A stretch of 64,000 bases of DNA. Source: an uncultured Candidatus Saccharibacteria bacterium (GTDB taxonomy: Bacteria > Patescibacteriota > Minisyncoccia > Phycocordibacterales > EsbW-18). The stretch's first letter is position 1. Every line of letters starts with the position of its first letter. Positions 3,042-60,997 of the stretch are shown piece by piece. The translations under genes and the position numbers were made by a program. The stretch is from assembly GCA_964520295.1 (NCBI GenBank), contig CAZFMQ010000003.1:1060-65059 (forward strand), written 5' to 3'. The notes beneath the pieces were generated by a model, which made no database searches, was not told the DNA's origin, and saw only the letters and a program-made list of their open reading frames with translations.

Positions 3042-4019
3042 ATGGATTTCACTCACGTTAAACCAAGCAAGAAAATCGTCGCACTCGGCATCATTGTGGG
3101 GGCAATTGTCATCGCAGTACTAGTCGGCAAGATTCAGTCCACACACATGGGCACTACACCGGTATTTACCGCCACTGCTCGTGAGCAGGTAGAAGAAACG
3201 GACACTGATGGTGATGGTTTGCCCGACTGGCAAGAAAAGTTGTGGGGGATGAGCGCTCACAATGCCGATTCAGATGGTGATGGGATCAATGATGCTGAAG
3301 AAGTAGCACGCACCCAGCAACAACAAATTGCCGACCGACAAACATTTGCCGACATCATTGATCCAACAACCAATCCTGAATGGAATTCAATGTCATACAC
3401 CGGACAAGTGAGCGGTTTAGTACTTTCTGACTACCTCACACTCAAACAGAGTGGAAAAACAATAACAGAGAATGACGTCATCGCGCTCATTGAAAATCTC
3501 CCGAGCTACGAGCAACCGGAGCGACCGCAGGCACGCCTCTATACGCGTGCAGACATCACCACCACAAATGAAACGGGTGATGGGGCATTGCGTGCGTACG
3601 GCAATAGTGTTGGCGCTGCACTCAAGCAAGGTGGTACTGCAAAAAATGAACTCTCTGTACTTGTTGCATTTATGGACAATGGGAATGACGCACAATTTGC
3701 ACAAGATGTACAAACAATCATTGCCCAATACACAAGCACCATACAAGCACTTCTTGTAGTACCGACCCCTCAAGATGTTGTAGAAGAGCACCTTGCAATC
3801 ATAAACGCACTCTCATTGCTCGTCAGCGATTTTCAATCATTTAATAGTTTCGGGAAAGATCCGTTCCTCGCGCTCTCAGTATTTCAATCATACAACAACG
3901 ACACTGCGGGACGCGGAACAGCATTTGATGCATTACGCACTGTTTTACGAAACGCCGACATCCAATACACGCAGACCGACCCGGGATTCATTTTATTTGA
4001 TACCATAACAACATCATGA
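3042..4019 (+). CDS. membrane-anchored protein with thrombospondin-type-3-like Ca-binding repeats
   Basis: N-terminal TM segment IVALGIIVGAIVIAVLV. Two DxDxDG repeats: DTDGDGLPDWQE and DSDGDGINDAEE. Confidence 0.5.
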   Translation: MDFTHVKPSKKIVALGIIVGAIVIAVLVGKIQSTHMGTTPVFTATAREQVEETDTDGDGLPDWQEKLWGMSAHNADSDGDGINDAEEVARTQQQQIADRQTFADIIDPTTNPEWNSMSYTGQVSGLVLSDYLTLKQSGKTITENDVIALIENLPSYEQPERPQARLYTRADITTTNETGDGALRAYGNSVGAALKQGGTAKNELSVLVAFMDNGNDAQFAQDVQTIIAQYTSTIQALLVVPTPQDVVEEHLAIINALSLLVSDFQSFNSFGKDPFLALSVFQSYNNDTAGRGTAFDALRTVLRNADIQYTQTDPGFILFDTITTS

Positions 4020-5791: not shown

Positions 5792-7869
5792 TCACATGGC
5801 TTAAAAAAAACCTGAAGTACATCATTCCAACAGTGTTTGTGGTGTTGTGTTTTGTGGTGCCACAATATACGGAAGCTGCCTGTTTTTGGCCAACAAAAGA
5901 ATGTATTCAGGGTTCTTTTGAGGAAGGTTTTATAACACTCTTGAATGGTTTTTTATATGTTTTTGGACTCCTACTCTCACTAGCAGGTCTTCTTCTTGAG
6001 GGTGTTATACAACTCACGATTGTAAATGCACGCAATATTATTATGGGGGATGGAACACTTCCAGGGCTCCAATCAATCGATCTCGCATGGCGCACTATTC
6101 GCGACGTCATCAACATCCTCTTTGTGTTTGTATTGCTCTATATCTCCATCAATATCATCCTTGATTCCTGGGGCAATAGTAGCTACAACAAATCACTTAT
6201 TCCAAAAGTGATTATCGCCGCACTCCTCATCAACTTCAGTTTATTTTTCACCAAAGTGGTATTTGATATCTCAAACGTCATCACATTTGAGTTTTATAAA
6301 ACAGCAGCAACACTGCATTCTGCACCAGCAGATCCAACTGATCCAAATTCAATACAGGTGCCCTTGACGGGCATCTCGGCGGCAATAATGGATGGGTTAC
6401 GCATGAGCGAGATTGTAAATGACGAGGGCAAAACAACGGAAACTGCGAAGGGGGTGTCGGGTACGTATGCTCTATTTGCGACCGTTTTGGGCATAATCAC
6501 TATTCTTGTTGCGACGTCTATTTTTATAGTCATGGCGGTCATGCTCCTTGCTCGCTTTATTGTATTTATTGCGTTGATGATTACATCGCCAATCGCATTT
6601 TTAGGCCCATTATTCCCCGCATTAAAGTCACACGCAGATCAATGGCAAAAAGCACTTATTAGTCAAGCAACCTTTGCACCGATCTTTTTCATAATGATAC
6701 TTGTGGTTGTCCTTATTATTTCAGATCCCAGTTTTGAAACAGCGCTACAAGTACAGACAGGCACCGGTGGTACAACTGCCGCAGGATATCTGGGGGGGTT
6801 ACTTAATGTTATCGTTCAATATGCAATCGTTGTTGGTTTATTGATTATCGCATTGGTTGTCTCGAAACAAACCGCAAACCAAACAGGCGATGCATTCAAA
6901 AACCTTGTGGGCAAGATTTCAGGTGGTGCCGCATTTGTGGGACGCAATACTGTTGGTCGCGCAGCAAACCGCGTCGTAAACTCTGCCGCAGTTGGCAACC
7001 TCACCAACAGCAATAATGCCCTGGCAAAAGGGGTGGGGCGCAGTTTGGTCTTTACGGGAGACAAAGTTCGCAGGTCTTCATTTAATGCACTGGGTGGTAA
7101 TCGCGTCGCAAATACACTGGGTGTGGAAACAAAGGAGTACGGTAAGGTAGGCACGCCTGGTGGTTTTGTACAGGCACGTGAGACATGGAATAAGAACCGT
7201 ACAGAGGAGGCCAAAAAGCGTGGTGGGTTGTACGCAGACACTAAAGCTCGAGCTACGCTACGCGATCAAATCAAGAATGCAAAAGATCAGGATGAGAAAC
7301 GAAGGGCACAAGATGCGCTTGCTTTGATGGATGGAAAATTAACACAGGCACAGAAAGATCTCTTAGAATCAAGTAAAAAACTTGACGCGACGCAGCGTGC
7401 AGAAGCTGAAGCAAAACAAAAAGCCATTGATGTTCAAAAGAAACAGACGGAGGAATTGGAGCGTGATATACAATTGGAAACAAATGATGAAAAACGAAAA
7501 CTTCTTGAGAGAAAGAAAGTGATTCTCGAGCGAGAAATCCAACTGGCTGAATCCGATGAAAACCTCAGTGCAGATCAAAAAGATTATCTCAAAAAGAAGA
7601 GTGGGGTTTCTGACATACGAAAAACAATGGAAGGTGCGAATAATCAGGCGGGTCGCGCAATTGGAGAAGAATTTGTAACTAGCCAGTTCCGTGGCAATCG
7701 TGCCGCCGCAGAAGAACTTTTGAAAGGAAAGGATCGGACTGATAAGGAAATAGCGGAGGAGGTGCGACGAGAAATGAAGAAACTTAACCGCAAAGCACGG
7801 ACACAAATAGAAAATGAAGAGCGACTCACAAACCCAAACCAGCCACCTAAACCAAATTTGCCTCAATAA
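5773..7869 (+). CDS. polytopic membrane protein with long charged coiled-coil C-terminus; VirB6/TrbL/PrgH-like by topology only
   Basis: N-terminal signal or TM segment followed by at least 6 hydrophobic helices over about 370 aa. The C-terminal 300 aa are a K/E/R/Q-rich coiled-coil. Sits in a cluster with VirB4 and PrgI-like genes. Confidence 0.45.
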   Translation: MVQSIMITWLKKNLKYIIPTVFVVLCFVVPQYTEAACFWPTKECIQGSFEEGFITLLNGFLYVFGLLLSLAGLLLEGVIQLTIVNARNIIMGDGTLPGLQSIDLAWRTIRDVINILFVFVLLYISINIILDSWGNSSYNKSLIPKVIIAALLINFSLFFTKVVFDISNVITFEFYKTAATLHSAPADPTDPNSIQVPLTGISAAIMDGLRMSEIVNDEGKTTETAKGVSGTYALFATVLGIITILVATSIFIVMAVMLLARFIVFIALMITSPIAFLGPLFPALKSHADQWQKALISQATFAPIFFIMILVVVLIISDPSFETALQVQTGTGGTTAAGYLGGLLNVIVQYAIVVGLLIIALVVSKQTANQTGDAFKNLVGKISGGAAFVGRNTVGRAANRVVNSAAVGNLTNSNNALAKGVGRSLVFTGDKVRRSSFNALGGNRVANTLGVETKEYGKVGTPGGFVQARETWNKNRTEEAKKRGGLYADTKARATLRDQIKNAKDQDEKRRAQDALALMDGKLTQAQKDLLESSKKLDATQRAEAEAKQKAIDVQKKQTEELERDIQLETNDEKRKLLERKKVILEREIQLAESDENLSADQKDYLKKKSGVSDIRKTMEGANNQAGRAIGEEFVTSQFRGNRAAAEELLKGKDRTDKEIAEEVRREMKKLNRKARTQIENEERLTNPNQPPKPNLPQ

Positions 7870-7881
7870 AAAATTTATATC

Positions 7882-8571
7882 ATGCTTTCTGATTCATCAA
7901 AACAAGTAATTCGGGATCGGGTTGCAGCAATGCCTGAGCGCGTGCGCGAGGCATTGGAGCACATTGATACAGCGAAGTATCTCTCGGTTCTCGCAAGCAA
8001 ATACAATCTTCGCACCGATGAGGCACAAACTCTTGAAAATGAAATAATGATTGTGATGCTTGGTTTGGAAAAACCCGAAGCATTTATTCACCACCTCACA
8101 AAAGCGGGTATTTCAAAAGAAACCGCTGCAGGACTTGTGGCGGACGTGAATCGTGATGTGTTTGAAAAAATCAGACATGATTTGATGGAGTTTTTGCAAA
8201 AAACTGGTGCAGGCACTGATGAAGACATTGATATGAGTGAGTCGCCAATCTCTAAACTTGAACGTGAGGAGGCGGAGCAAGAAAAAGCGGAATCGTCTGA
8301 ACCAGCACCTGCAGTCATCATGCCGAAGGTGGAAGAAATCACACCAACGCATACAGAGGCGACACCTCCCGTTGAAAGCGTGGCTCCCACAGAACAAAGT
8401 GCACCAGCATCTGCTTCTGTAGCTTCTACACCCACACAGAACCAATCTCAAACAACGCCAGCACCAACACTTGCAAACGATTTTGCAAAAACACGCATGG
8501 AACAAACAGTACACATGCCCGACGCTAAAAAATATTCTGGCGTAGATCCGTATAGGGAACCAATACAGTAA
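7882..8571 (+). CDS. hypothetical protein with low-complexity P/T/S/A-rich C-terminus
   Basis: 229-aa ORF immediately after the VirB6-like gene. No motif recognised. Confidence 0.45.
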   Translation: MLSDSSKQVIRDRVAAMPERVREALEHIDTAKYLSVLASKYNLRTDEAQTLENEIMIVMLGLEKPEAFIHHLTKAGISKETAAGLVADVNRDVFEKIRHDLMEFLQKTGAGTDEDIDMSESPISKLEREEAEQEKAESSEPAPAVIMPKVEEITPTHTEATPPVESVAPTEQSAPASASVASTPTQNQSQTTPAPTLANDFAKTRMEQTVHMPDAKKYSGVDPYREPIQ

Positions 8572-8645
8572 AGGGGGTGGGGGAAGCGCCAATAGCGCTT
8601 CGGGCGCTCATGCTACATGCTATGTGATTTCTGGTATGTGAACCA

Positions 8646-9101
8646 CTACTGTTGCTGTTCTGAATACAATGAGTCGTGCACATCCAAACTCCACGCGAGA
8701 TCACGAAGCTTACTGTCAGAAAGACGTGGCACCGTCACTGCCGTAGCCGCACCAGTCGTTTCCTGAGCACTACTTGTTGCTTTGCGAGGTTCCTTTTTCC
8801 AAATATACAGTTTCTTAGAGAGGAAAAATTTTAGTGCCGTTTCAAGAAAGCCCACGAACGGGCGGTCGTTTACCTTATAGAAGGCGAGCGCAAAACCGAG
8901 GCCCGCAACACCTGCAATCAGAAGAACGGCAAGTATTTTTGGAATAAAAAACCAAATAACAACAGACAAACCTGCCGCACCCGCAAGATAGATAAACTGT
9001 TTGAACGTCAGCGGTCCAAATACCTTGTCCTCTATATCAATGAATTGTGGTACTTCAAATTTCACGGTAGTAAAAGGTATATACATCATAGCACGTAGCA
9101 C
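8646..9101 (-). CDS. PrgI/VirB3-like small T4SS membrane protein
   Basis: EVPQFIDIEDKVFGPLTFKQFIYLAGAAGLSVVIWFF followed by a second TM, which is the PrgI-family pattern. The call is from memory of the family, not from a search. Confidence 0.55.
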   Translation of the reverse strand: MLRAMMYIPFTTVKFEVPQFIDIEDKVFGPLTFKQFIYLAGAAGLSVVIWFFIPKILAVLLIAGVAGLGFALAFYKVNDRPFVGFLETALKFFLSKKLYIWKKEPRKATSSAQETTGAATAVTVPRLSDSKLRDLAWSLDVHDSLYSEQQQ

Positions 9102-9228
9102 ATAGCAAAAAACACTTAGGGTTCAAACCTTGAATGCTTTAGAGACCGAATCCCCAATTGGGGATTCGGTCTCTTTGTTACACAGTACACGCTACACACT
9201 ATATGTTCCGTGATACAATATACGCTGT

Positions 9229-9888
9229 ATGGCAGCGCCTAAGGCACAAAGTACACAAGCATTTGTTCCTATTAAAGAAATCCGCAGCGGCATCGTCATT
9301 CTCAAAGACGGTTCTATGCGCTCGGTACTCTTGTGCTCCTCACTAAACTTCGCACTCAAATCAGAAGATGAACAGCAGGCAATCATTATGCAGTTCCAAA
9401 ACCTGCTGAACTCGGTGGAATTTCCTATACAAATCATGATTCAGTCGCGCGAGCTGGACATCCGCCCCTACATCGCGCTCCTTGAAGCACAAATAAAAGA
9501 GCAAACCCTTGAACTCATTAAAATACAAACGCGCGAATACATTGAGTTTGTGCGCGGATTTACCGAACAACAGAACATCATGTCTAAGAACTTTTTTGTA
9601 GTAGTACCGTATTCACCCGCGGTTATTTCTGCTGCACAGGGTGGTGTCAAAGGCGCCCTCGGCAACATACTTCCTGGAAAACAAAAAGATAATCCTGAAC
9701 AAAAAATAATTGCATTTGAAGAACACCGCAGCCAGTTAGAACAACGCATCGGCATCGTGTCGCAGAACCTTGCGCGAACCGGTATTCGTGCGGTGCAGTT
9801 GCAAACAGAGGAGTTGGTGGAGTTATACTATAAATTATTCAACCCGGGTGATTCTGAAAAACCAATTGCACTCTCTGCCATCAAATAA
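9229..9888 (+). CDS. VirB4/TrbE-family N-terminal domain fragment; first half of a split VirB4
   Basis: VPIKEIRSGIVILKDGSMRSVLLCSSLNFALKSEDEQQAIIMQFQNLLNSVEFPIQIMIQSR matches the conserved N-terminus of Gram-positive-type VirB4 (TrsE/PrgJ/TcpF). Ends at TAA 9886-9888, 7 nt before the ATG of the next ORF, which is in a different frame. Confidence 0.65.
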   Translation: MAAPKAQSTQAFVPIKEIRSGIVILKDGSMRSVLLCSSLNFALKSEDEQQAIIMQFQNLLNSVEFPIQIMIQSRELDIRPYIALLEAQIKEQTLELIKIQTREYIEFVRGFTEQQNIMSKNFFVVVPYSPAVISAAQGGVKGALGNILPGKQKDNPEQKIIAFEEHRSQLEQRIGIVSQNLARTGIRAVQLQTEELVELYYKLFNPGDSEKPIALSAIK

Positions 9889-37071: not shown

Positions 37072-37467
37072 TTGTTCCACGTAGGTAGCAACCACAAGGG
37101 GGTGGTCATGTTCCAAAACGCAGTACACGTCACACGGTGGTTCGTGCACCCGGAATCTGGAATCACGTCTGAAGTCATCGGACGTGAGGTTGGGGAAGAG
37201 AACACCCATCACGCTGTGCCGTGTTCTGACGGAACACGACGCGACCTCTATGAGGTCTCGCCGTACTTCCTCAAGAAGTTGCGTGCACATGGGAAGCCAT
37301 TGCGCTTCTCGGTGTGGTGCTCCAACGATGGAGAGTTGCCACATCCCTTCGTGCAGAAGGCGCGGCACCAGCGCACGCCCGATCCGGAAGTGCGCAAGAT
37401 GTTCCGTGCGCTGCTCAAGCTCCACAGAGAGCGGGAGATGCGAGCGCGGGGCATCCATCTGAGCTGA
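37072..37467 (+). CDS. hypothetical protein in a GC-rich island
   Basis: 131-aa ORF in a segment clearly more GC-rich than its surroundings. Followed by two tandem plus-strand hairpin terminators (about 37482-37518 and 37528-37563). No homology recognised. Confidence 0.35.
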   Translation: MFHVGSNHKGVVMFQNAVHVTRWFVHPESGITSEVIGREVGEENTHHAVPCSDGTRRDLYEVSPYFLKKLRAHGKPLRFSVWCSNDGELPHPFVQKARHQRTPDPEVRKMFRALLKLHREREMRARGIHLS

Positions 37468-45503: not shown

Positions 45504-45881
45504 TTACCATGTGATGCCGTGGTTGAGCAATCTCTTGGTGATCGCGTACGCGAGACAGAGCGAGACGAGATCGCGCAGGAACTCCTCGCAGTCACCGGAG
45601 AAGGTGACTTGGTTCGAGAGTTCCTCCTTGCTTGCGAGCACGTCGCCGATCTCGAAGGCGCACATGATCTTGCCGAGCGTCTCGGGGCGCATGGCCCGGA
45701 TGTCTCCGGCGCAGAGGTCGATCTTCACGTGCTTGCGGAACGCGGCTTCGCTCTCCATCTGGTGCGCGATGTCCAGGTAGCGGTTCTTCCTGATGAGGCT
45801 CATCACGAGATTGTGAATGTACAGATCGCTCATTTTTATCTCCTTTCGTGGAGATTCCTCGCTCCCAGTAATCTGGACCAC
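45504..45881 (-). CDS. hypothetical protein in a GC-rich island
   Basis: 125-aa ORF (possibly starting at the internal MSDLYIHN) in a roughly 450-bp stretch that is much more GC-rich than its flanks. No homology recognised. Confidence 0.35.
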   Translation of the reverse strand: MVQITGSEESPRKEIKMSDLYIHNLVMSLIRKNRYLDIAHQMESEAAFRKHVKIDLCAGDIRAMRPETLGKIMCAFEIGDVLASKEELSNQVTFSGDCEEFLRDLVSLCLAYAITKRLLNHGITW

Positions 45882-46275
45882 TCTCGCCGAAAGGTTCGAC
45901 GGGCATGTGGTGGGCGACAGAGCGGTCGCCCGGGCGATCCGATAAAACTAGGTTTTATCGATGGTTGCATTATATATATGTAATCTTGATATGTCAAATA
46001 TAAAGTGACACACCAATCCTCATTCCCGTGTCACCCCTGTCACTTTACGATGTGCACGAGAAGCATCGTTCGGATAGTGTAGAATGAGCTGAACCACCAA
46101 GCCTTGTATGACACCTACTAGTTCTAGCTCGAGATAGCACCCACGATACAAAAACAATCTATCCGTGTGATGGGTTGTTTTTAGTTTTTTGATTTTTCCT
46201 ATTCCCCAACACCTAGTCCCCGTTCCCTAGAGACTTTGCTATACTAAAAGCACATTAGTATTTTAATTTGTACCT

Positions 46276-47193
46276 ATGCACTACAAGCATTTCTCATATA
46301 TTGCACTTGTTGCAATACTCGCAACATCTCTCTTTATCGGCACTACCGCACGCGCAGAGGTGAGCTGTATTTTTGAACGCGATCTCGCACTCGGTGATCA
46401 AGGCGAAGATGTACGTTGTTTGCAAAAATATCTCAACAGCGCTGGCTTTACCGTAGCAGCAAGTGGCCCAGGTGCACCTGGTGGCGAGACCAGTTTGTAT
46501 CGCGAGAAAACAATGGAGGCAGTACAACAGTGGCAGCAAGCAAAGGGTGTAATGCCATCAACGGGCACATGGGGTCCGCTCTCGCGCCTCACATACACCA
46601 AAGCACTTGCAAGTGCATTGAATGCGCAAAAGCCAGTGGTGGTTACACCAACAGTTGCAAGCATCACCGCAGTACCTTCTGTATCGGATGCAGAAAAACG
46701 TGCGCGCGCAGCACTGCTCGCAGCAGTCAGTGCGCTTGAAGATGCACAAGATGAGTACGATGAAGCAGAAGATGATGATGAAGAAACAGGCGATGCAGAC
46801 GAATACATTGAGGATGCACGTAATGACCTCTTTGATGCCATTCGCGCATTCTTGAAGGGTGACTTTGATGAGGCAGATGATTACGCAAGCAGCGCACGCG
46901 ATGCTGCCGACGATGCATCTGATGAAATAGAGGGTGAGTCGCGCAATGATGAAGACCGTGCTGAAGAAGAATTGGATGAAGTAGAAGAAGAACTGGATGA
47001 AGCATGGGATGAAGTAGCAGACGCAGAAGATGATGATGATGAAGATGTTGATGAGGCAGAAGATTTGCTTGATGAGGCAGAAGATCTTTTGGAAGATGCA
47101 GAAGATGCATTTGATGACGAAGATTGGGACGACGTACTTGATTTGGTAGATGAAATTCGTGACCTTATTGATGAAGCACTCGATTCGCTCTAA
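46276..47193 (+). CDS. secreted protein with a peptidoglycan-binding-like domain and an extreme D/E-rich C-terminal tail of about 180 aa
   Basis: Signal peptide ...LFIGTTARAEV. PG_binding_1-like LALGDQGEDVRCLQKYLNSAGFTVAASGPGAPGGETSLYREKTMEAVQQWQ. The tail is almost entirely D/E/A/L with imperfect 21-nt tandem repeats (DEAEDLL units). Confidence 0.6.
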   Translation: MHYKHFSYIALVAILATSLFIGTTARAEVSCIFERDLALGDQGEDVRCLQKYLNSAGFTVAASGPGAPGGETSLYREKTMEAVQQWQQAKGVMPSTGTWGPLSRLTYTKALASALNAQKPVVVTPTVASITAVPSVSDAEKRARAALLAAVSALEDAQDEYDEAEDDDEETGDADEYIEDARNDLFDAIRAFLKGDFDEADDYASSARDAADDASDEIEGESRNDEDRAEEELDEVEEELDEAWDEVADAEDDDDEDVDEAEDLLDEAEDLLEDAEDAFDDEDWDDVLDLVDEIRDLIDEALDSL

Positions 47194-50043: not shown

Positions 50044-50928
50044 GTGACAGTATTACAGAGTAATTATATACGTATGGAATCAAGTACAGTGCAACAGGCG
50101 GCGAAGTATCTTGGATGGTTGTGTATCGCGCTCATTGCGTTCGTGGCAATTCTGAGCTTCAACGCACTTAAAGAGTATCGCTATATTGGTGGCGGTGTTC
50201 CATCTACGAATGTTATCACCGTGTCAGGGCAGGGCGAGGCGTTTGCTGTGCCTGATATTGCGGAGTTTTCGTACACCGTATTTGCGGAAGCAACAACAGT
50301 AGCAGAAGCACAGGCACAAGCGGCAGAGAAGGGTAATGCAGTACTCGCATTTCTCAAGGGTGAAGGTATTGCTGAAAAAGATATTAAGACTACAAGCTAT
50401 AGCGCTAATCCAAAGTATGAATGGGTCAACGGTACCGTGCGTCCTATGATGGGTGCGGGCACGATGGGTTCCGTTGGCGCTACAGAGCCAGCAATTGCAG
50501 TTGATTACTACTATCCTGGCACACGCAATCAAGTCATCACAGGATATGAAGTTCGCCAAACGGTGTCAGTGAAGGTGCGCGATACTGAAGTGGTAGGTGC
50601 ATTGCTTGCGGGTGTAGGGGAGCGGGGAGCAACTGATATCTACGGTCCTAACTTCACTATTGATGATGAAGAAGTATTACAGCGCGATGCACGTCGCGAT
50701 GCTATCAAAGATGCAGAAGAGAAAGCTGAGCAATTAGCAGATGATTTGGGTGTTCGCTTGGTACGTGTCGTCTCATTCTCTGAGGGTGGTGGATACTATC
50801 CTCCATACTACTCACGCGATACGATGATGTCGGCAGGTATGGCTGTTGAAGAAAAAGCGATTCCCGAGATTCCACTCGGTGAAAACAAAATTACCGTCAA
50901 CGTCTCTATTACCTACGAGATTAGATAA
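50044..50928 (+). CDS. SIMPL-domain (DUF541) protein
   Basis: N-terminal TM. ...VSGQGEAFAVPDIAEFSYTV... and a C-terminal ...ITVNVSITYEI pattern typical of SIMPL. Confidence 0.7.
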   Translation: MTVLQSNYIRMESSTVQQAAKYLGWLCIALIAFVAILSFNALKEYRYIGGGVPSTNVITVSGQGEAFAVPDIAEFSYTVFAEATTVAEAQAQAAEKGNAVLAFLKGEGIAEKDIKTTSYSANPKYEWVNGTVRPMMGAGTMGSVGATEPAIAVDYYYPGTRNQVITGYEVRQTVSVKVRDTEVVGALLAGVGERGATDIYGPNFTIDDEEVLQRDARRDAIKDAEEKAEQLADDLGVRLVRVVSFSEGGGYYPPYYSRDTMMSAGMAVEEKAIPEIPLGENKITVNVSITYEIR

Positions 50929-50942
50929 CACGATAGGGAGCC

Positions 50943-50965
50943 CGCCCCGACATACTGTCGGGGCG
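50943..50965. repeat. 23-nt hairpin repeat copy 1; also a terminator of the SIMPL gene
   Basis: cgccccgacatactgtcggggcg is identical to 51743-51765. It forms the hairpin GCCCCGACA-TAC-TGTCGGGGC followed by cttcttttgttg. Confidence 0.7.
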
Positions 50966-51071
50966 CTTCTTTTGTTGACAGACATTCTCTGCATGTGTAT
51001 TGTGCCCACGTACAGTGTTCTTTTACAGTGCTACACACGTTCGTCAATGACGAACACGATAATCGGCACAT

Positions 51072-51728
51072 GTGCCGAAGAAAGGAGAAGGGGACATGTC
51101 CTCATTCTCGATTGGGCAAATGAATCAACTTGGCGACGCGCTTGAGCGCGCCGGCTTCATGCGGGAGCACATCACGATGCTCGGCCAGAACAAGGACGGT
51201 ATCCTCACCTCGGTCAAGGGACTCCTTGATGGTGTCTACAAGATCAAGACGAGAACGTTTCGCATCTGGAAAACCATTCCGATCGGCATCCACAAAGGTG
51301 CCGAAGGATATCTCAAGGCACTCCGCCGGAACCACAGCATGATCACGTGCACTGCCAGGGACATCTTGGAGAGGAAGCACTTCACGACGGCACCAGCTGT
51401 TGAGAACATCCAGCTCGTGAAAGTCACACCACATCATTTTGGATTTATCACGGAACCTCGCTTTGATGCGTTCTGCAGCCGTGGTCAGGAATTCGGACTT
51501 GAAATCTGCCCCGCAGAGGTCGGTCCGGCACTTGTCCTTGCATACGGCAAGCAGTCGTATAGCGAGCGTATTCAGGTCGCGATGGAGACCATTCCTGATA
51601 AGCAGCTTCTTCCCTCTGTGTGTGTGGTCGATATCGATCTCGGCCGCCGTGGCCTCTCGACCGTATTCTACTACCCTGACTCAAGGGTCGAGATTGATTC
51701 CAAATGGGTCTTTCGGACCCGCCGATAG
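51072..51728 (+). CDS. hypothetical protein in a GC-rich segment flanked by identical 23-nt hairpin repeats
   Basis: 218-aa ORF with GC content clearly above the window average. Bracketed by the identical hairpins at 50943-50965 and 51743-51765. No homology recognised. Confidence 0.4.
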   Translation: MPKKGEGDMSSFSIGQMNQLGDALERAGFMREHITMLGQNKDGILTSVKGLLDGVYKIKTRTFRIWKTIPIGIHKGAEGYLKALRRNHSMITCTARDILERKHFTTAPAVENIQLVKVTPHHFGFITEPRFDAFCSRGQEFGLEICPAEVGPALVLAYGKQSYSERIQVAMETIPDKQLLPSVCVVDIDLGRRGLSTVFYYPDSRVEIDSKWVFRTRR

Positions 51729-51742
51729 CATGAGTAGTAACT

Positions 51743-51765
51743 CGCCCCGACATACTGTCGGGGCG
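51743..51765. repeat. 23-nt hairpin repeat copy 2; also a terminator
   Basis: Identical to 50943-50965. Followed by ttgtcatttctg. Confidence 0.7.
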
Positions 51766-51852
51766 TTGTCATTTCTGAATGTACTTACGTGTTTCCATTT
51801 ATCACACGGTATGTGCTCTACGTCACATGGTACGTGTTACAATGGCTACAGC

Positions 51853-53607
51853 ATGCAATTTGATACCGAACAACTCATTCAATTTCTTGTAGACACAAAA
51901 ATGCTCTCGCTTTCTAAGGCGCAGGAACTGCAAGCATTGGCAGAAGAGCGTGATATGTCGTTTGAAGATATGGTGGTGTCTGAAGGTGCAATGACGGAGG
52001 ATGATATGCGACGCGCAAAAGCGCACGTTATCGGTATTCCATTTGTTGATCTCAAAGAAGAAAAAATTGAATATGATACGCTCGCACTTATTCCTGAGCC
52101 GATTGCGCGCGCCAACAATATTGTGGCGTACCGCAAGGTGAAAAATACACTGGAGGTTGCCATGTTGGATGTGCAGGATTTGCAGGCGATTGATTTCATC
52201 AAAAAGAAGACAGGGCTCACCATTTCACCGCGTCTGACCGATACCAACTCCATCAAGCGCGCGCTCATTCAGTACCAAAAAAGCTTGAAAGCGGAGTTTG
52301 GCGATATCCTGCAAGCAGATGCACTCGCCATCGGCTCGCTTGGAGAAGGGATTACGGACGATGCAAGCGGCGATGTACTCAAGAAAATAGCAGAAGATTT
52401 GCCGGTGGTGCGTATTGTTGAGACACTCGTGCGTCACGCCGTGGTTGGTGGCGCATCTGACATTCACATGGAGCCGATGGAGAAAGAATTGCTCGTGCGC
52501 TACCGCATCGATGGTTTGTTGCGTGATGCCATGACACTGCCAAAAGCCGCCGCCTCGGGCATTGTTGCGCGTATCAAAGTGCTTGCGAATCTCAAGTTGG
52601 ACGAAAAGCGTTTGCCACAAGATGGTCGTTTCAAAATGGATATTGATGGCGAGCGCGTCTCGTTTCGTGTATCCACACTACCAATTTATTTCGGCGAGAA
52701 GGTCGTGATGCGTATTCTCCACGAAGGCGCATCTGGTTTTACACTGGAGACACTCGGTTTTCACGGCGAAGCATTGGAAGCATTGCACTGGGCAACGAAG
52801 CAATCAACCGGCATGATTTTGGCAACAGGTCCAACGGGTTCTGGTAAGACCACGACGCTGTACACGATTTTGGATATCCTCAACACGCCCGACGTCAACA
52901 TTTCAACGATTGAAGACCCGATTGAGTATCAAATGCCTCGTGTCAATCAAACGCAGGTAAAGCCAGAAATAGGCATGACGTTCAGTAACGGACTGCGCGC
53001 ACTGGTGCGTCAGGATCCCGACATCATCATGGTGGGAGAAATTCGTGATGGTGAAACGGTCAATCTTGCTATCAATGCGGCGCTGACAGGACACTTAGTG
53101 CTCTCTACCATTCACACGAACTCTGCCGCAGGTGTCGTTGCGCGTATGCTTGATATGGGTGCGGAGCCATTCCTCATTGCGTCCACTATCAATGTGGTGG
53201 TTGGTCAGCGTTTGGTGCGCACGCTCACACAGCACAAAGAAAAATACACATTGTCTGCCGACGAACTCAAAACATTAGAACAATCTGTTGATTTGGAGCG
53301 TATGCTCGGTTTTCTCAAGCAGGAAGGTGTGGTGGAAAAAGATGCCACATGGAAGGATGTACCGTTCTATCGTCCCAAAAAGGTATCTGGTGATGACACC
53401 GATGGATACAAGGGACGTATTGGTATTCATGAAGTGTTCAAAGTGTCGTCAGCAACACGCGAATTGATTGTGCGCCGTGCGACCTCAGAGGAAATTGAAG
53501 AGCAGGCAAAGAAAGAGGGCATGATGACGATGCTGGAAGACGGTATTTTCAAAGCAGTACAAGGTGTTACCACTATTGAAGAAGTCCTGCGCGTGATTTC
53601 GGAATAA
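51853..53607 (+). CDS. second GspE/PilB-family type II/IV secretion ATPase
   Basis: GSPII_E N-terminal domain. Walker A GPTGSGKTTTLYT. Asp and His boxes. Start at ATG 51853 (MQFDTEQ). The track start at 51439 reads through the hairpin repeat. Confidence 0.9.
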   Translation: MQFDTEQLIQFLVDTKMLSLSKAQELQALAEERDMSFEDMVVSEGAMTEDDMRRAKAHVIGIPFVDLKEEKIEYDTLALIPEPIARANNIVAYRKVKNTLEVAMLDVQDLQAIDFIKKKTGLTISPRLTDTNSIKRALIQYQKSLKAEFGDILQADALAIGSLGEGITDDASGDVLKKIAEDLPVVRIVETLVRHAVVGGASDIHMEPMEKELLVRYRIDGLLRDAMTLPKAAASGIVARIKVLANLKLDEKRLPQDGRFKMDIDGERVSFRVSTLPIYFGEKVVMRILHEGASGFTLETLGFHGEALEALHWATKQSTGMILATGPTGSGKTTTLYTILDILNTPDVNISTIEDPIEYQMPRVNQTQVKPEIGMTFSNGLRALVRQDPDIIMVGEIRDGETVNLAINAALTGHLVLSTIHTNSAAGVVARMLDMGAEPFLIASTINVVVGQRLVRTLTQHKEKYTLSADELKTLEQSVDLERMLGFLKQEGVVEKDATWKDVPFYRPKKVSGDDTDGYKGRIGIHEVFKVSSATRELIVRRATSEEIEEQAKKEGMMTMLEDGIFKAVQGVTTIEEVLRVISE

Positions 53608-60965: not shown

Positions 60966-60997
60966 AGAGCCCCACATACGGGGCTCTGTTTTTTATA
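60966..60997. terminator. rho-independent terminator between convergent genes
   Basis: agagcccc-acatac-ggggctct hairpin followed by gttttttata. Confidence 0.6.

Follow-up and report, generated by a model that had tools for sequence, protein, structure and literature searches.

The subject of this work is a short segment within a stretch of 64,000 nucleotides (64 kb, hereafter "the window") from contig CAZFMQ010000003.1 of an uncultured Candidatus Saccharibacteria bacterium. The genes around the segment encode YceI, SIMPL, PilB and PilC, and the spacer between the SIMPL gene and pilB harbors an additional gene whose product (P0001) is related to target proteins of diversity-generating retroelements (DGRs). 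This gene is bracketed by two identical hairpins. The initial annotation drew attention to the arrangement and proposed that the DNA between the hairpins had been inserted, either by recombination at a folded site resembling attC or by duplication of the SIMPL terminator.

The hairpin sequence, CGCCCCGACATACTGTCGGGGCG, is a 23-mer found, just as initially described, in two exact copies on the + strand (0 mismatches). The window contains no others, and the number expected from 100 dinucleotide shuffles was 0. The start-to-start distance is exactly 800 bp, with 777 bp of new DNA between the copies. The 23-mer is a perfect palindrome (10+3+10) that yields a 10-bp stem with 8 G-C pairs and a TAC loop. 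Folding as single-stranded DNA gave −13.4 and −13.7 kcal/mol (z = −4.2 and −7.6), and both copies were called by a terminator scan. Each of them lies 14 nucleotides (nt) past a stop codon: that of the SIMPL gene in the case of copy 1, where CTTCTTTTG comes next, and that of the enclosed open reading frame (ORF) in the case of copy 2. The borders of the repeat coincide with those of the palindrome, and the adjoining bases differ between copies, with C/T on each of the two sides. A repeat search of the window extended the match leftward to 42 nt at 81% identity. However, Smith-Waterman similarity was not significant either in the 60 nt upstream of both copies (53 of 500 shuffles scored as well) or in the tails downstream (35 of 500), so that the repeat is the 23-mer alone. 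The 42-nt repeat was discarded on the basis of these shuffle tests, the common GATA[AG] being an Arg codon plus a stop codon. An 800-bp tandem duplication was also ruled out, as SIMPL and the insert do not show similarity.

The closest named relatives of the SIMPL protein of the window belong to Candidatus Campbellbacteria and other Patescibacteria. A scan of GTDB species genomes with SIMPL gave a best match of 49% identity that lacked pilB synteny; close sister loci were found through protein look-ups. Three sister lineages, represented by P0160 (L023-25), P0159 (L026) and P0161 (L035-38, on 24 contigs), have SIMPL proteins 67-69% identical to that of the window and keep the gene order DsbB, YceI, small ORF, SIMPL, PilB, PilC. 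In all three, the SIMPL-pilB spacer is 79-117 bp long and contains one terminator hairpin and no cassette gene. The sister comparison that the initial annotation had called for thus gave the predicted absence of the gene and a single hairpin, but the hairpin sequence is different in every lineage and also differs from the 23-mer of the window. When 800 bp are subtracted, the spacer of the window acquires the sister layout: the stop codon is 14 nt from the hairpin, the hairpin is 42 nt (43 nt in the sisters) from a conserved GGT(T)ATGTGCT, and the TACAAT box and pilB follow. The 3' end of SIMPL, ACCTACGAGATT..TAA, aligns with the sister loci and is native, as are the 14 nt that separate the stop codon from hairpin copy 1. 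The native spacer upstream of pilB was delimited by alignment of the window with L023, L026, L035 and L038. Hence, both outer flanks look native, with a hairpin on either side of the new DNA, and the segment between the hairpins is an insertion relative to the sister genomes. Because the sister hairpins all differ, which indicates fast turnover of terminators, identity at 23 of 23 positions, loop included, speaks for a recent copy rather than for two independent terminators. Native outer flanks and identical hairpins fit duplication of the resident terminator at insertion, and the second option of the initial annotation is therefore the one that we favor.

The metagenomic origin of the sequence, the palindromic nature of the repeat and the differing composition of the insert might raise the suspicion that assembly had joined in a segment of another population at a palindromic k-mer common to both. 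An artefact of this kind is extremely unlikely. Logan contigs are built with k = 31, which is longer than the 23-nt repeat, and the separately built Logan contig L001 is 100% identical to the window over 7.5 kb that include both hairpin junctions, an identity that argues against a mis-join. Furthermore, the position and the architecture of the cassette match real loci in other genomes.

Occurrence of the 23-mer was also examined in JGI metagenomes, where three single copies were detected in unrelated contigs (L027 3396-3418, L029 3038-3060, L028 933-955). Two of the three are a terminator-like hairpin located directly behind a phosphoglycerate kinase gene (pgk). Chance recurrence of short perfect hairpins is possible across very large databases, and the JGI copies are better explained by a simple hairpin that recurs than by relatedness. 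The view of the 23-mer as a generic or mobile repeat was discarded, as there is no third copy in the window and the JGI copies are single and lie in unrelated long contigs. The same counts bear on the possibility that the locus contains an 823-bp transposable unit with hairpin ends, either of the IS200/IS605 type or another single-stranded DNA element, mobilised in trans. Such a unit would explain the presence of identical, same-orientation, sub-terminal hairpins at both ends and the lack of terminal inverted repeats. However, copy 1 sits exactly at the native place of the SIMPL terminator, 14 nt past the stop codon as in the sisters, and no second native hairpin is found upstream of it. In addition, neither TnpA nor TnpB was seen in ORF translations read by eye (ORFs of at least 140 amino acids between 1 and 30 kb, of at least 105 amino acids between 30 and 48 kb, and the ORFs of 48-54 kb). 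Together with the copy counts, these observations make a transposable unit highly improbable. The same reading of translations revealed no integrase, transposase or reverse transcriptase (RT), in agreement with the initial view that the segment has no integrase of its own.

The insert has the features of an expression cassette. It opens with a sigma-70-type promoter, and a consensus promoter is found at the equivalent place in the related cassettes L002, L005, L006, L030 and L032. The leader contains the motif GTTCTTTTACAGTGCTAC at 51017-51034, just past the −10 box, a stem-loop (GTTCGTC-AAT-GACGAAC), the palindrome CGGCACATGTGCCG at 51064-51077 and an AAGGAG Shine-Dalgarno sequence at 51082-51087, and its RNA fold reaches −39 kcal/mol (z = −3.0 relative to shuffles). 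The motif GTTCTTTNNNAGTRCTAC is identical in the window (51017-51034), L005 (3312-3329) and L021 (7087-7104). Followed by a stem-loop with GTCAAT, it is common to DGR target genes that encode different proteins in different genomes, and the arrangement may represent a cis-element conserved in the DGR target transcripts of Patescibacteria.

Two ACATGT-based palindromes are also common to genes whose products have an MSSFS... N-terminus (window 51064-51110, L002 9990-10015, L005 3375-3407, L030 1010-1056, L041 225-268). One of them, GGCACATGTGCC, is located ahead of the Shine-Dalgarno sequence, and the other covers the start codon (GAGGACATGTCCTC, GAAGACATGTCTTC or GACGACATGTCGTC). In the consensus fold of these leaders the Shine-Dalgarno region is paired with codons 2-6, the palindrome and the hairpin are conserved, and compensatory changes involve a base of the 5' untranslated region and the wobble base of codon 2 (AU 3, GC 2, CG 1 at one pair). 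The start-codon hairpin may act in translational control or as an operator, and the leader/start hairpin may explain in part the strong conservation of the first codons. A scan of IMG/VR for the leader palindromes gave a single match, an unrelated phage-like contig.

The gene had been described as GC-rich. In total GC the excess is modest (0.542 versus a window gene mean of 0.468); at third codon positions, however, the GC content is 0.659 compared with 0.429 ± 0.076 in 58 window ORFs, about +3 standard deviations. In composition, the cassette looks foreign.

A small gene located between two hairpin-forming sites in direct orientation, without a recombinase of its own, recalls an integron cassette whose integrase might be encoded elsewhere, and this was the meaning of the attC-like site in the initial annotation. 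The details of the locus do not sustain that idea. Sites of the attC type extend over far more DNA, are imperfect as palindromes and include extrahelical bases, a GTTRRRY core and R''/L''/L'/R' boxes, while the hairpins of the window are perfect 23-bp structures without R-boxes or extrahelical bases. GTTRRRY is absent, as GTTGACA and GTTGTCA fail at the purine positions. The two sites are identical, whereas integron recombination yields hybrid sites, and possession of an own promoter is atypical of integron cassettes. Neither an intI-like ORF nor a cassette array was seen in the window, where the search consisted of reading translations by eye and did not include a profile search of the ORFs. 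Lastly, related cassettes in six other genomes do not have such sites. We therefore view an integron-like origin as very unlikely; the flanking hairpin pair is probably the scar of an insertion rather than an integron-like site.

An ORF of 218 amino acids, mechanically called from GTG 51072, had been annotated between the hairpins. The ORF exists but is better read as a gene of 210 codons from ATG 51096, which gives an N-terminus identical to that of relatives. The product was initially considered unrecognisable, and searches of P0001 in Pfam, PHROGs, NCBIfam, PADLOC and PDB sequences did indeed give no real match; matches to alphaRep, which involve 30 residues of designed repeat proteins, were dismissed as meaningless. 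A word-indexed search retrieved an identical protein and three proteins that are alike only in the first ~30 residues (MSSFSIGQMNQLGDALERAGF..DIT.LGQ). The latter have other C-termini, and their genes are located behind rplE, rpoD and rpoA in Patescibacteria-like contigs. In turn, an exhaustive HMMER search detected 2,043 relatives of the C-terminal 160 residues (E ≤ 0.001), several of them with the same N-module. On sequence grounds, therefore, P0001 belongs to a family of more than 2,000 proteins that is absent from Pfam and that can be recognised as a family of DGR variable proteins, as described below. P0012 has the same N-module and C-domain, with 36% identity to P0001 over the full length, while the closest relative of the C-domain is P0005, with 45% identity. 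An AlphaFold2 model of P0001, built with 72 homologues, has a predicted local distance difference test score (pLDDT) of 90.8.

Two short N-terminal helical modules, MSSFSIGQMNQLGDALERAGF..DIT.LGQ and L(T/S)xGQLNALVKKVGGE, are found joined to several unrelated C-domains, including different DGR variable domains. The proteins compared were P0002-P0004, P0008, P0012, P0021 and P0024; and the product of L021 7257-7829, P0019 and P0007. The combinations observed suggest that modules are shuffled among target genes. In P0006, P0007, P0009, P0010, P0014 and P0129, the C-domain is present twice in tandem. A cassette with the same N-module as P0001 is also found in L002 (9830-11056), where it splits a ribosomal protein operon between rplE and rpsN. 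A terminator with a 16-bp stem is located ahead of its promoter, and its own terminator is followed by a second TTGACA promoter and a leader of ~240 nt ahead of rpsN.

The relationship between this family and DGRs was established by examination of the loci of its members. In L032, the gene for P0012 has behind it a 129-nt repeat that corresponds to its 3' end, then bAvd and then a gene of the RVT_1 family; 20 of the 21 differences between the repeats are found at adenines of the downstream copy, which is the template repeat (TR). The arrangement is the same at the P0005 locus (L039), where 14 of 16 mismatches are at TR adenines, and in L006 the figure is 27 of 28. On the IMG/VR contig L042, two members of the family stand in tandem, accompanied by a TR and an Avd. 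The variable regions (VRs) of the P0012, P0005 and L042 genes are the homologous last 40-45 codons. Adenine-specific TR/VR pairs and Avd/RT beside these genes identify the family as a DGR variable-protein scaffold.

Complete DGRs are also found next to pilB in relatives of the window. One of them, in a sister whose SIMPL is 72% identical (L021), occupies the same SIMPL-pilB spacer (6868-9680) and includes target, TR, bAvd and RT; all 11 TR-VR mismatches fall on adenines. Another is located in L039 (3784-5700), directly after pilB. These two elements indicate that DGR material has arrived more than once in the spacers that flank pilB in this lineage. The clustering of complete DGRs around type IV pilus genes admits two explanations: one is functional and involves a pilus-linked binding protein, and the other is that such spacers are permissive.

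The DGR targets of Patescibacteria, also known as the Candidate Phyla Radiation (CPR), are reported typically to show no recognisable domains, probably to conceal new variants of C-type lectins and to have a modular N-terminus (PMC8144416). The gene of the window belongs to the same protein family as proven targets of this kind ("clade 2" of Roux et al. 2021, PMC8144416; the CPR subset of Wu et al. 2018, PMC5758913). Like them, it lacks a recognisable Pfam domain, signal peptide or transmembrane segment, fuses a modular N-terminus to a C-terminal variable domain, and has the same promoter/leader architecture. The segment equivalent to the VR can be aligned with the VR and the TR of L039 without gaps, and differences from the L039 TR amount to 69% at TR adenines versus 35-45% at other bases. 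It ends in TGGGTCTTTCGGACCCGC, which resembles the initiation of mutagenic homing (IMH) sequence, and retains the conserved end TGGGTCTT(C/T)CGG(T/A)CCCGC.

In contrast with the CPR targets described above, TR, Avd and RT are missing around the gene. A tblastn search of the 64-kb window with the RT and Avd proteins of L021 and L032 (two RTs and two Avds in all) gave no real match. The only candidate, at 51834-51935, was spurious: the called RT ORF of L021 overlaps the first ~95 nt of pilB in a different frame (L021 9680-9774), and the match derived from that extension. When a TR was sought with the last 230 nt of the gene (blastn, 7-nt words), no match longer than 13 nt was found in the 64 kb, and the repeat search of the window revealed no pair of the TR/VR type for the cassette gene. 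For lack of RT, Avd and TR, the gene counts as an orphan target of the DGR type, at least as far as the 64 kb extend. It may thus be described as a stand-alone DGR-type target cassette, which retains the promoter, the leader, the N-module, the C-terminal fold and the IMH-like 3' end of the family (Table 1).

Table 1. Coordinates of the SIMPL-pilB region and of the elements of the inserted cassette (positions in the window).
Feature	Position	Strand	Description
SIMPL (DUF541) gene, upstream neighbour	50044..50928	+	Pfam PF04402, E = 1.2e-51
Hairpin copy 1, CGCCCCGACA-TAC-TGTCGGGGCG	50943..50965	+	Occupies the SIMPL terminator position of sister genomes
Sigma-70-type promoter, TTGACA-17-TATTGT	50975..51003	+	Promoter scan, 10/12 matches; begins 9 nt past hairpin copy 1
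5' leader, ~90 nt	51004..51095	+	Motif, stem-loop, palindrome and Shine-Dalgarno sequence
210-amino-acid gene (P0001), orphan DGR-type variable protein	51096..51728	+	ATG start, AAGGAG Shine-Dalgarno sequence
N-terminal three-helix module	Amino acids 1-45, 51096-51230	+	Part of P0001
C-terminal domain	Amino acids about 52-210, 51249-51725	+	Part of P0001
VR-equivalent segment, last 45 codons	51594..51728	+	Aligns codon by codon, without gaps, with the L039 VR and TR
Hairpin copy 2, identical to copy 1	51743..51765	+	Cassette terminator; weak T-tail TTGTCATTTC
Native pilB-upstream spacer	51766..51852	+	Has GGTATGTGCT and a TACAAT −10-like box, common to sisters
pilB, type IV pilus assembly ATPase, downstream neighbour	51853..53607	+	Pfam T2SSE, E = 4e-125; MshEN

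One might ask if a DGR located elsewhere in the genome still acts on this gene, with the hairpin after the stop codon recruiting the retrohoming machinery. Remote targets are documented in Treponema, Trichodesmium and others (PMC5758913, PMC8867640), and the gene of the window is likewise of the target type and away from any RT. Its ORF is intact, a confident fold is predicted, and the IMH-like end is followed 14 nt downstream by a GC-rich 10-bp hairpin. On the other hand, true remote targets have a known matching TR in the same genome, while none was found here in the 64 kb searched; CPR DGRs reportedly have one adjacent target as a rule, with remote targets reported only in another lineage (PMC5758913). 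Moreover, the loop of the hairpin departs from the GRNA consensus of DGR hairpins (PMC3240598), and the VR-equivalent segment is identical in both available assemblies, with no variation between them; its DNA identity to the nearest known TR is 51%. Continuing diversification of the gene could thus be envisaged, but action of a remote DGR seems unlikely on balance. As a functional claim, it would be compatible with the insertion model.

The hairpin itself deserves consideration as a possible DGR element. Target-site hairpins of DGRs have a stem of 7-10 bp, are located 4-34 bp from the VR and possess a 4-nt GRNA loop, whose size and sequence are critical in BPP-1 (Guo et al. 2011, PMC3240598). 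Similar structures are found in relatives of the window gene, with stems of 8-10 bp and 4-nt GTGA or GTAA loops. The post-VR hairpin of L039 is GCCCCGCGTG-GTGA-CACGTGGGGC and starts with GCCCCG, as does the hairpin of the window, and L042 contains hairpins with GTAA loops at 2574-2632 and 3486-3544, one behind each tandem target. The stems of the latter differ by compensatory changes (GCCACACG/CGTGTGGC versus GCCGCACG/CGTGCGGC), which is good evidence that the post-VR hairpin is selected as a structure in this group of DGRs. The GC-rich, non-coding hairpin of the window falls within the ranges of stem (10 bp) and distance (14 nt past the VR-equivalent end). However, its loop consists of 3 nt, TAC, which become ATACT when the last pair is opened, and lies outside the 4-nt GRNA consensus, and an identical copy stands behind SIMPL, which is not a target gene. 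The resemblance to the tandem units of L042, each of which ends in a hairpin, is limited for the same reason: here the upstream unit is SIMPL. The hairpin of the window also looks like a plain intrinsic terminator and may simply be one.

The cassette might be the relic of a complete DGR that once occupied the SIMPL-pilB spacer and later lost TR, avd and RT. Copy 2 would then be the original post-VR hairpin, and copy 1 would have arisen by later conversion or copying onto the SIMPL terminator. A full DGR is indeed found in the identical spacer of L021, where the target has the same leader motif; GC-rich post-VR hairpins exist in DGRs of the family, including the GCCCCG start in L039 and the compensatory stems in L042; and the distance between the IMH-like end and the hairpin, 14 nt, is inside the 4-34 bp range (PMC3240598). 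We nevertheless find a relic doubtful for several reasons. The interval between copy 2 and pilB bears no trace of TR, avd or RT, and its 87 nt align with the native pilB leader. The targets of L021 and the window have neither the N-module nor the C-domain in common. Nothing supports the transfer of a hairpin copy to an adjacent terminator, and the 3-nt TAC loop is not the 4-nt G..A loop of DGR hairpins.

Altogether, the explanation to which we give preference, as a reasonably probable one, is that a horizontally acquired expression cassette entered at the SIMPL terminator, whose palindrome was duplicated in the process, and that the cargo is an orphan target of the DGR type. The 800-bp segment would be a self-contained unit made of sigma-70 promoter, structured leader, 210-amino-acid gene and hairpin terminator, which would have landed in the SIMPL-pilB spacer, a variable spot of the lineage. 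Insertion at the intrinsic terminator of SIMPL would have left the 23-bp palindrome on both sides of the 777 bp. A direct repeat flanks the insert, the empty sites with which it is compared being those of distant sisters with differing hairpins. The ends of the insert, CTTCTTTTGTTGACA... and ...GCATGAGTAGTAACT, are not inverted repeats. Two routes can be conceived: breaks at the two bases of the hairpin or cruciform followed by fill-in, which would duplicate the target, or one crossover, located inside the palindrome, that joins the chromosome to a circular or linear donor. The data do not distinguish between them, and the mechanism of insertion is one that we infer. Retrotransposition of the mRNA of the cassette was ruled out because the insert includes its own promoter. 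At present, copy 1 would terminate SIMPL, while copy 2 would terminate the cassette and insulate pilB. The product would consist of a short helical module at the N-terminus and, at the C-terminus, a ligand-binding domain that is probably C-type-lectin-like; a role of P0001 in ligand binding may be tentatively proposed.

Several observations weigh against this explanation. The sisters are distant (SIMPL 67-72% identical), and none of them has the same 23-mer as a single copy at the empty site. The T-rich tail is better at copy 1 than at copy 2, and alignment (scores 3-5) does not confidently identify either of them as the ancestral sequence. Duplication of the hairpin around the cassette is found at a single locus: the borders of eight related cassettes (L002, L005, L006, L021, L030, L032, L039 and L042) show no identical flanking repeats, so that duplication is not a trait of the family and the mechanism depends on one locus. 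The repeats found in those cassettes are TR/VR pairs and the tandem targets of L042 only; none of the DGR loci compared shows the bracketing by a duplicated host terminator that is seen in the window. We know of no citable precedent for a 23-bp target duplication. As regards the product, the best Foldseek matches in PDB and BFVD are nearly all C-type-lectin domains, but their scores are non-significant (E = 0.1-1), so that assignment of the C-domain of P0001 to a C-type-lectin-like fold, a candidate for carrying the variable residues, is suggestive only.

A more ambitious speculation is that integration is directed by structure, and that target cassettes of Patescibacteria, perhaps even whole DGRs, land at extruded terminator hairpins or cruciforms. 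If true, it would explain the presence of cassettes in various genomes directly behind the terminators of housekeeping genes that are not related to one another (rplE, rpoD, rpoA, recO, SIMPL and pilB), as well as repeated arrival in pilus-gene spacers of the lineage. A conceptual parallel would be provided by group IIC introns and by the use that DGRs make of a VR-adjacent hairpin. Group IIC (bacterial class C) introns insert just downstream of the stem-loops of intrinsic terminators (PMC3240598). In the window, the new DNA likewise begins right after a GC-rich terminator stem, and the structure of the stem, not its sequence, could serve as a landmark; in addition, the RTs of DGRs and group II introns are related. 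The insert, however, is a protein-coding cassette with a promoter: at a permissive threshold, Rfam gave no match between 50800 and 51950, and the only ORF there encodes the 210-amino-acid protein, without intron RNA domains or RT. Furthermore, we know of no case of terminator duplication by group IIC insertion. We regard structure-directed integration as quite unlikely.

The initial annotation had also placed the cassette in a family of small cargo cassettes without integrase, together with two other GC-rich islands and a hairpin further downstream. This grouping is weak at best. The islands contain ORFs at 37108-37467 (+, 119 amino acids) and 45504-45833 (−, 109 amino acids), which have in common with the cassette neither repeats nor leader motif nor protein similarity. 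Both are GC-rich, give no Pfam match and have their own promoters, which in the case of the second is a perfect TTGACA-17-TATAAT near 45990 with a long leader; they lie between terminators, beside tRNA or housekeeping genes, and lack flanking repeats. As for the hairpin at 60966-60987, AGAGCCCC-ACATAC-GGGGCTCT, only CCCC and ACATAC are common to it and the repeat. It is located between convergent genes and has T-runs on both strands, which makes it an ordinary bidirectional terminator.

Two further regions of the window may be mentioned. Between 16400 and 20000 the GC content drops to 0.30-0.37, compared with ~0.47 elsewhere, and dnaA and dnaN are found there; this is presumably the region of the replication origin. 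At 46276-47193, a 305-amino-acid protein is encoded that combines a peptidoglycan-binding-like N-terminus with a very acidic (Asp/Glu-rich) C-terminal half made of degenerate 21-30-nt repeats.

DGRs are abundant in Patescibacteria. To our knowledge, their target proteins are almost entirely uncharacterised. The comparison presented here provides a before-and-after series at one spacer, which is empty in three lineages, contains a target-only cassette in the window and harbors a full DGR in a fourth lineage. In addition, a family of more than 2,000 proteins that Pfam does not cover can now be assigned to the DGR variable proteins as a scaffold for which a confident structure model is available. 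The cargo belongs to a known kind of DGR target, while the junction signature is a single observation that matters only if it recurs. Exact duplication of a terminator palindrome is a single, sharp signature and can be searched for systematically. If it does not recur, the gene would be an ordinary orphan target, and the hairpin repeat a one-off of illegitimate recombination. If it does, it would point to a mechanism of insertion directed by terminators or cruciforms.

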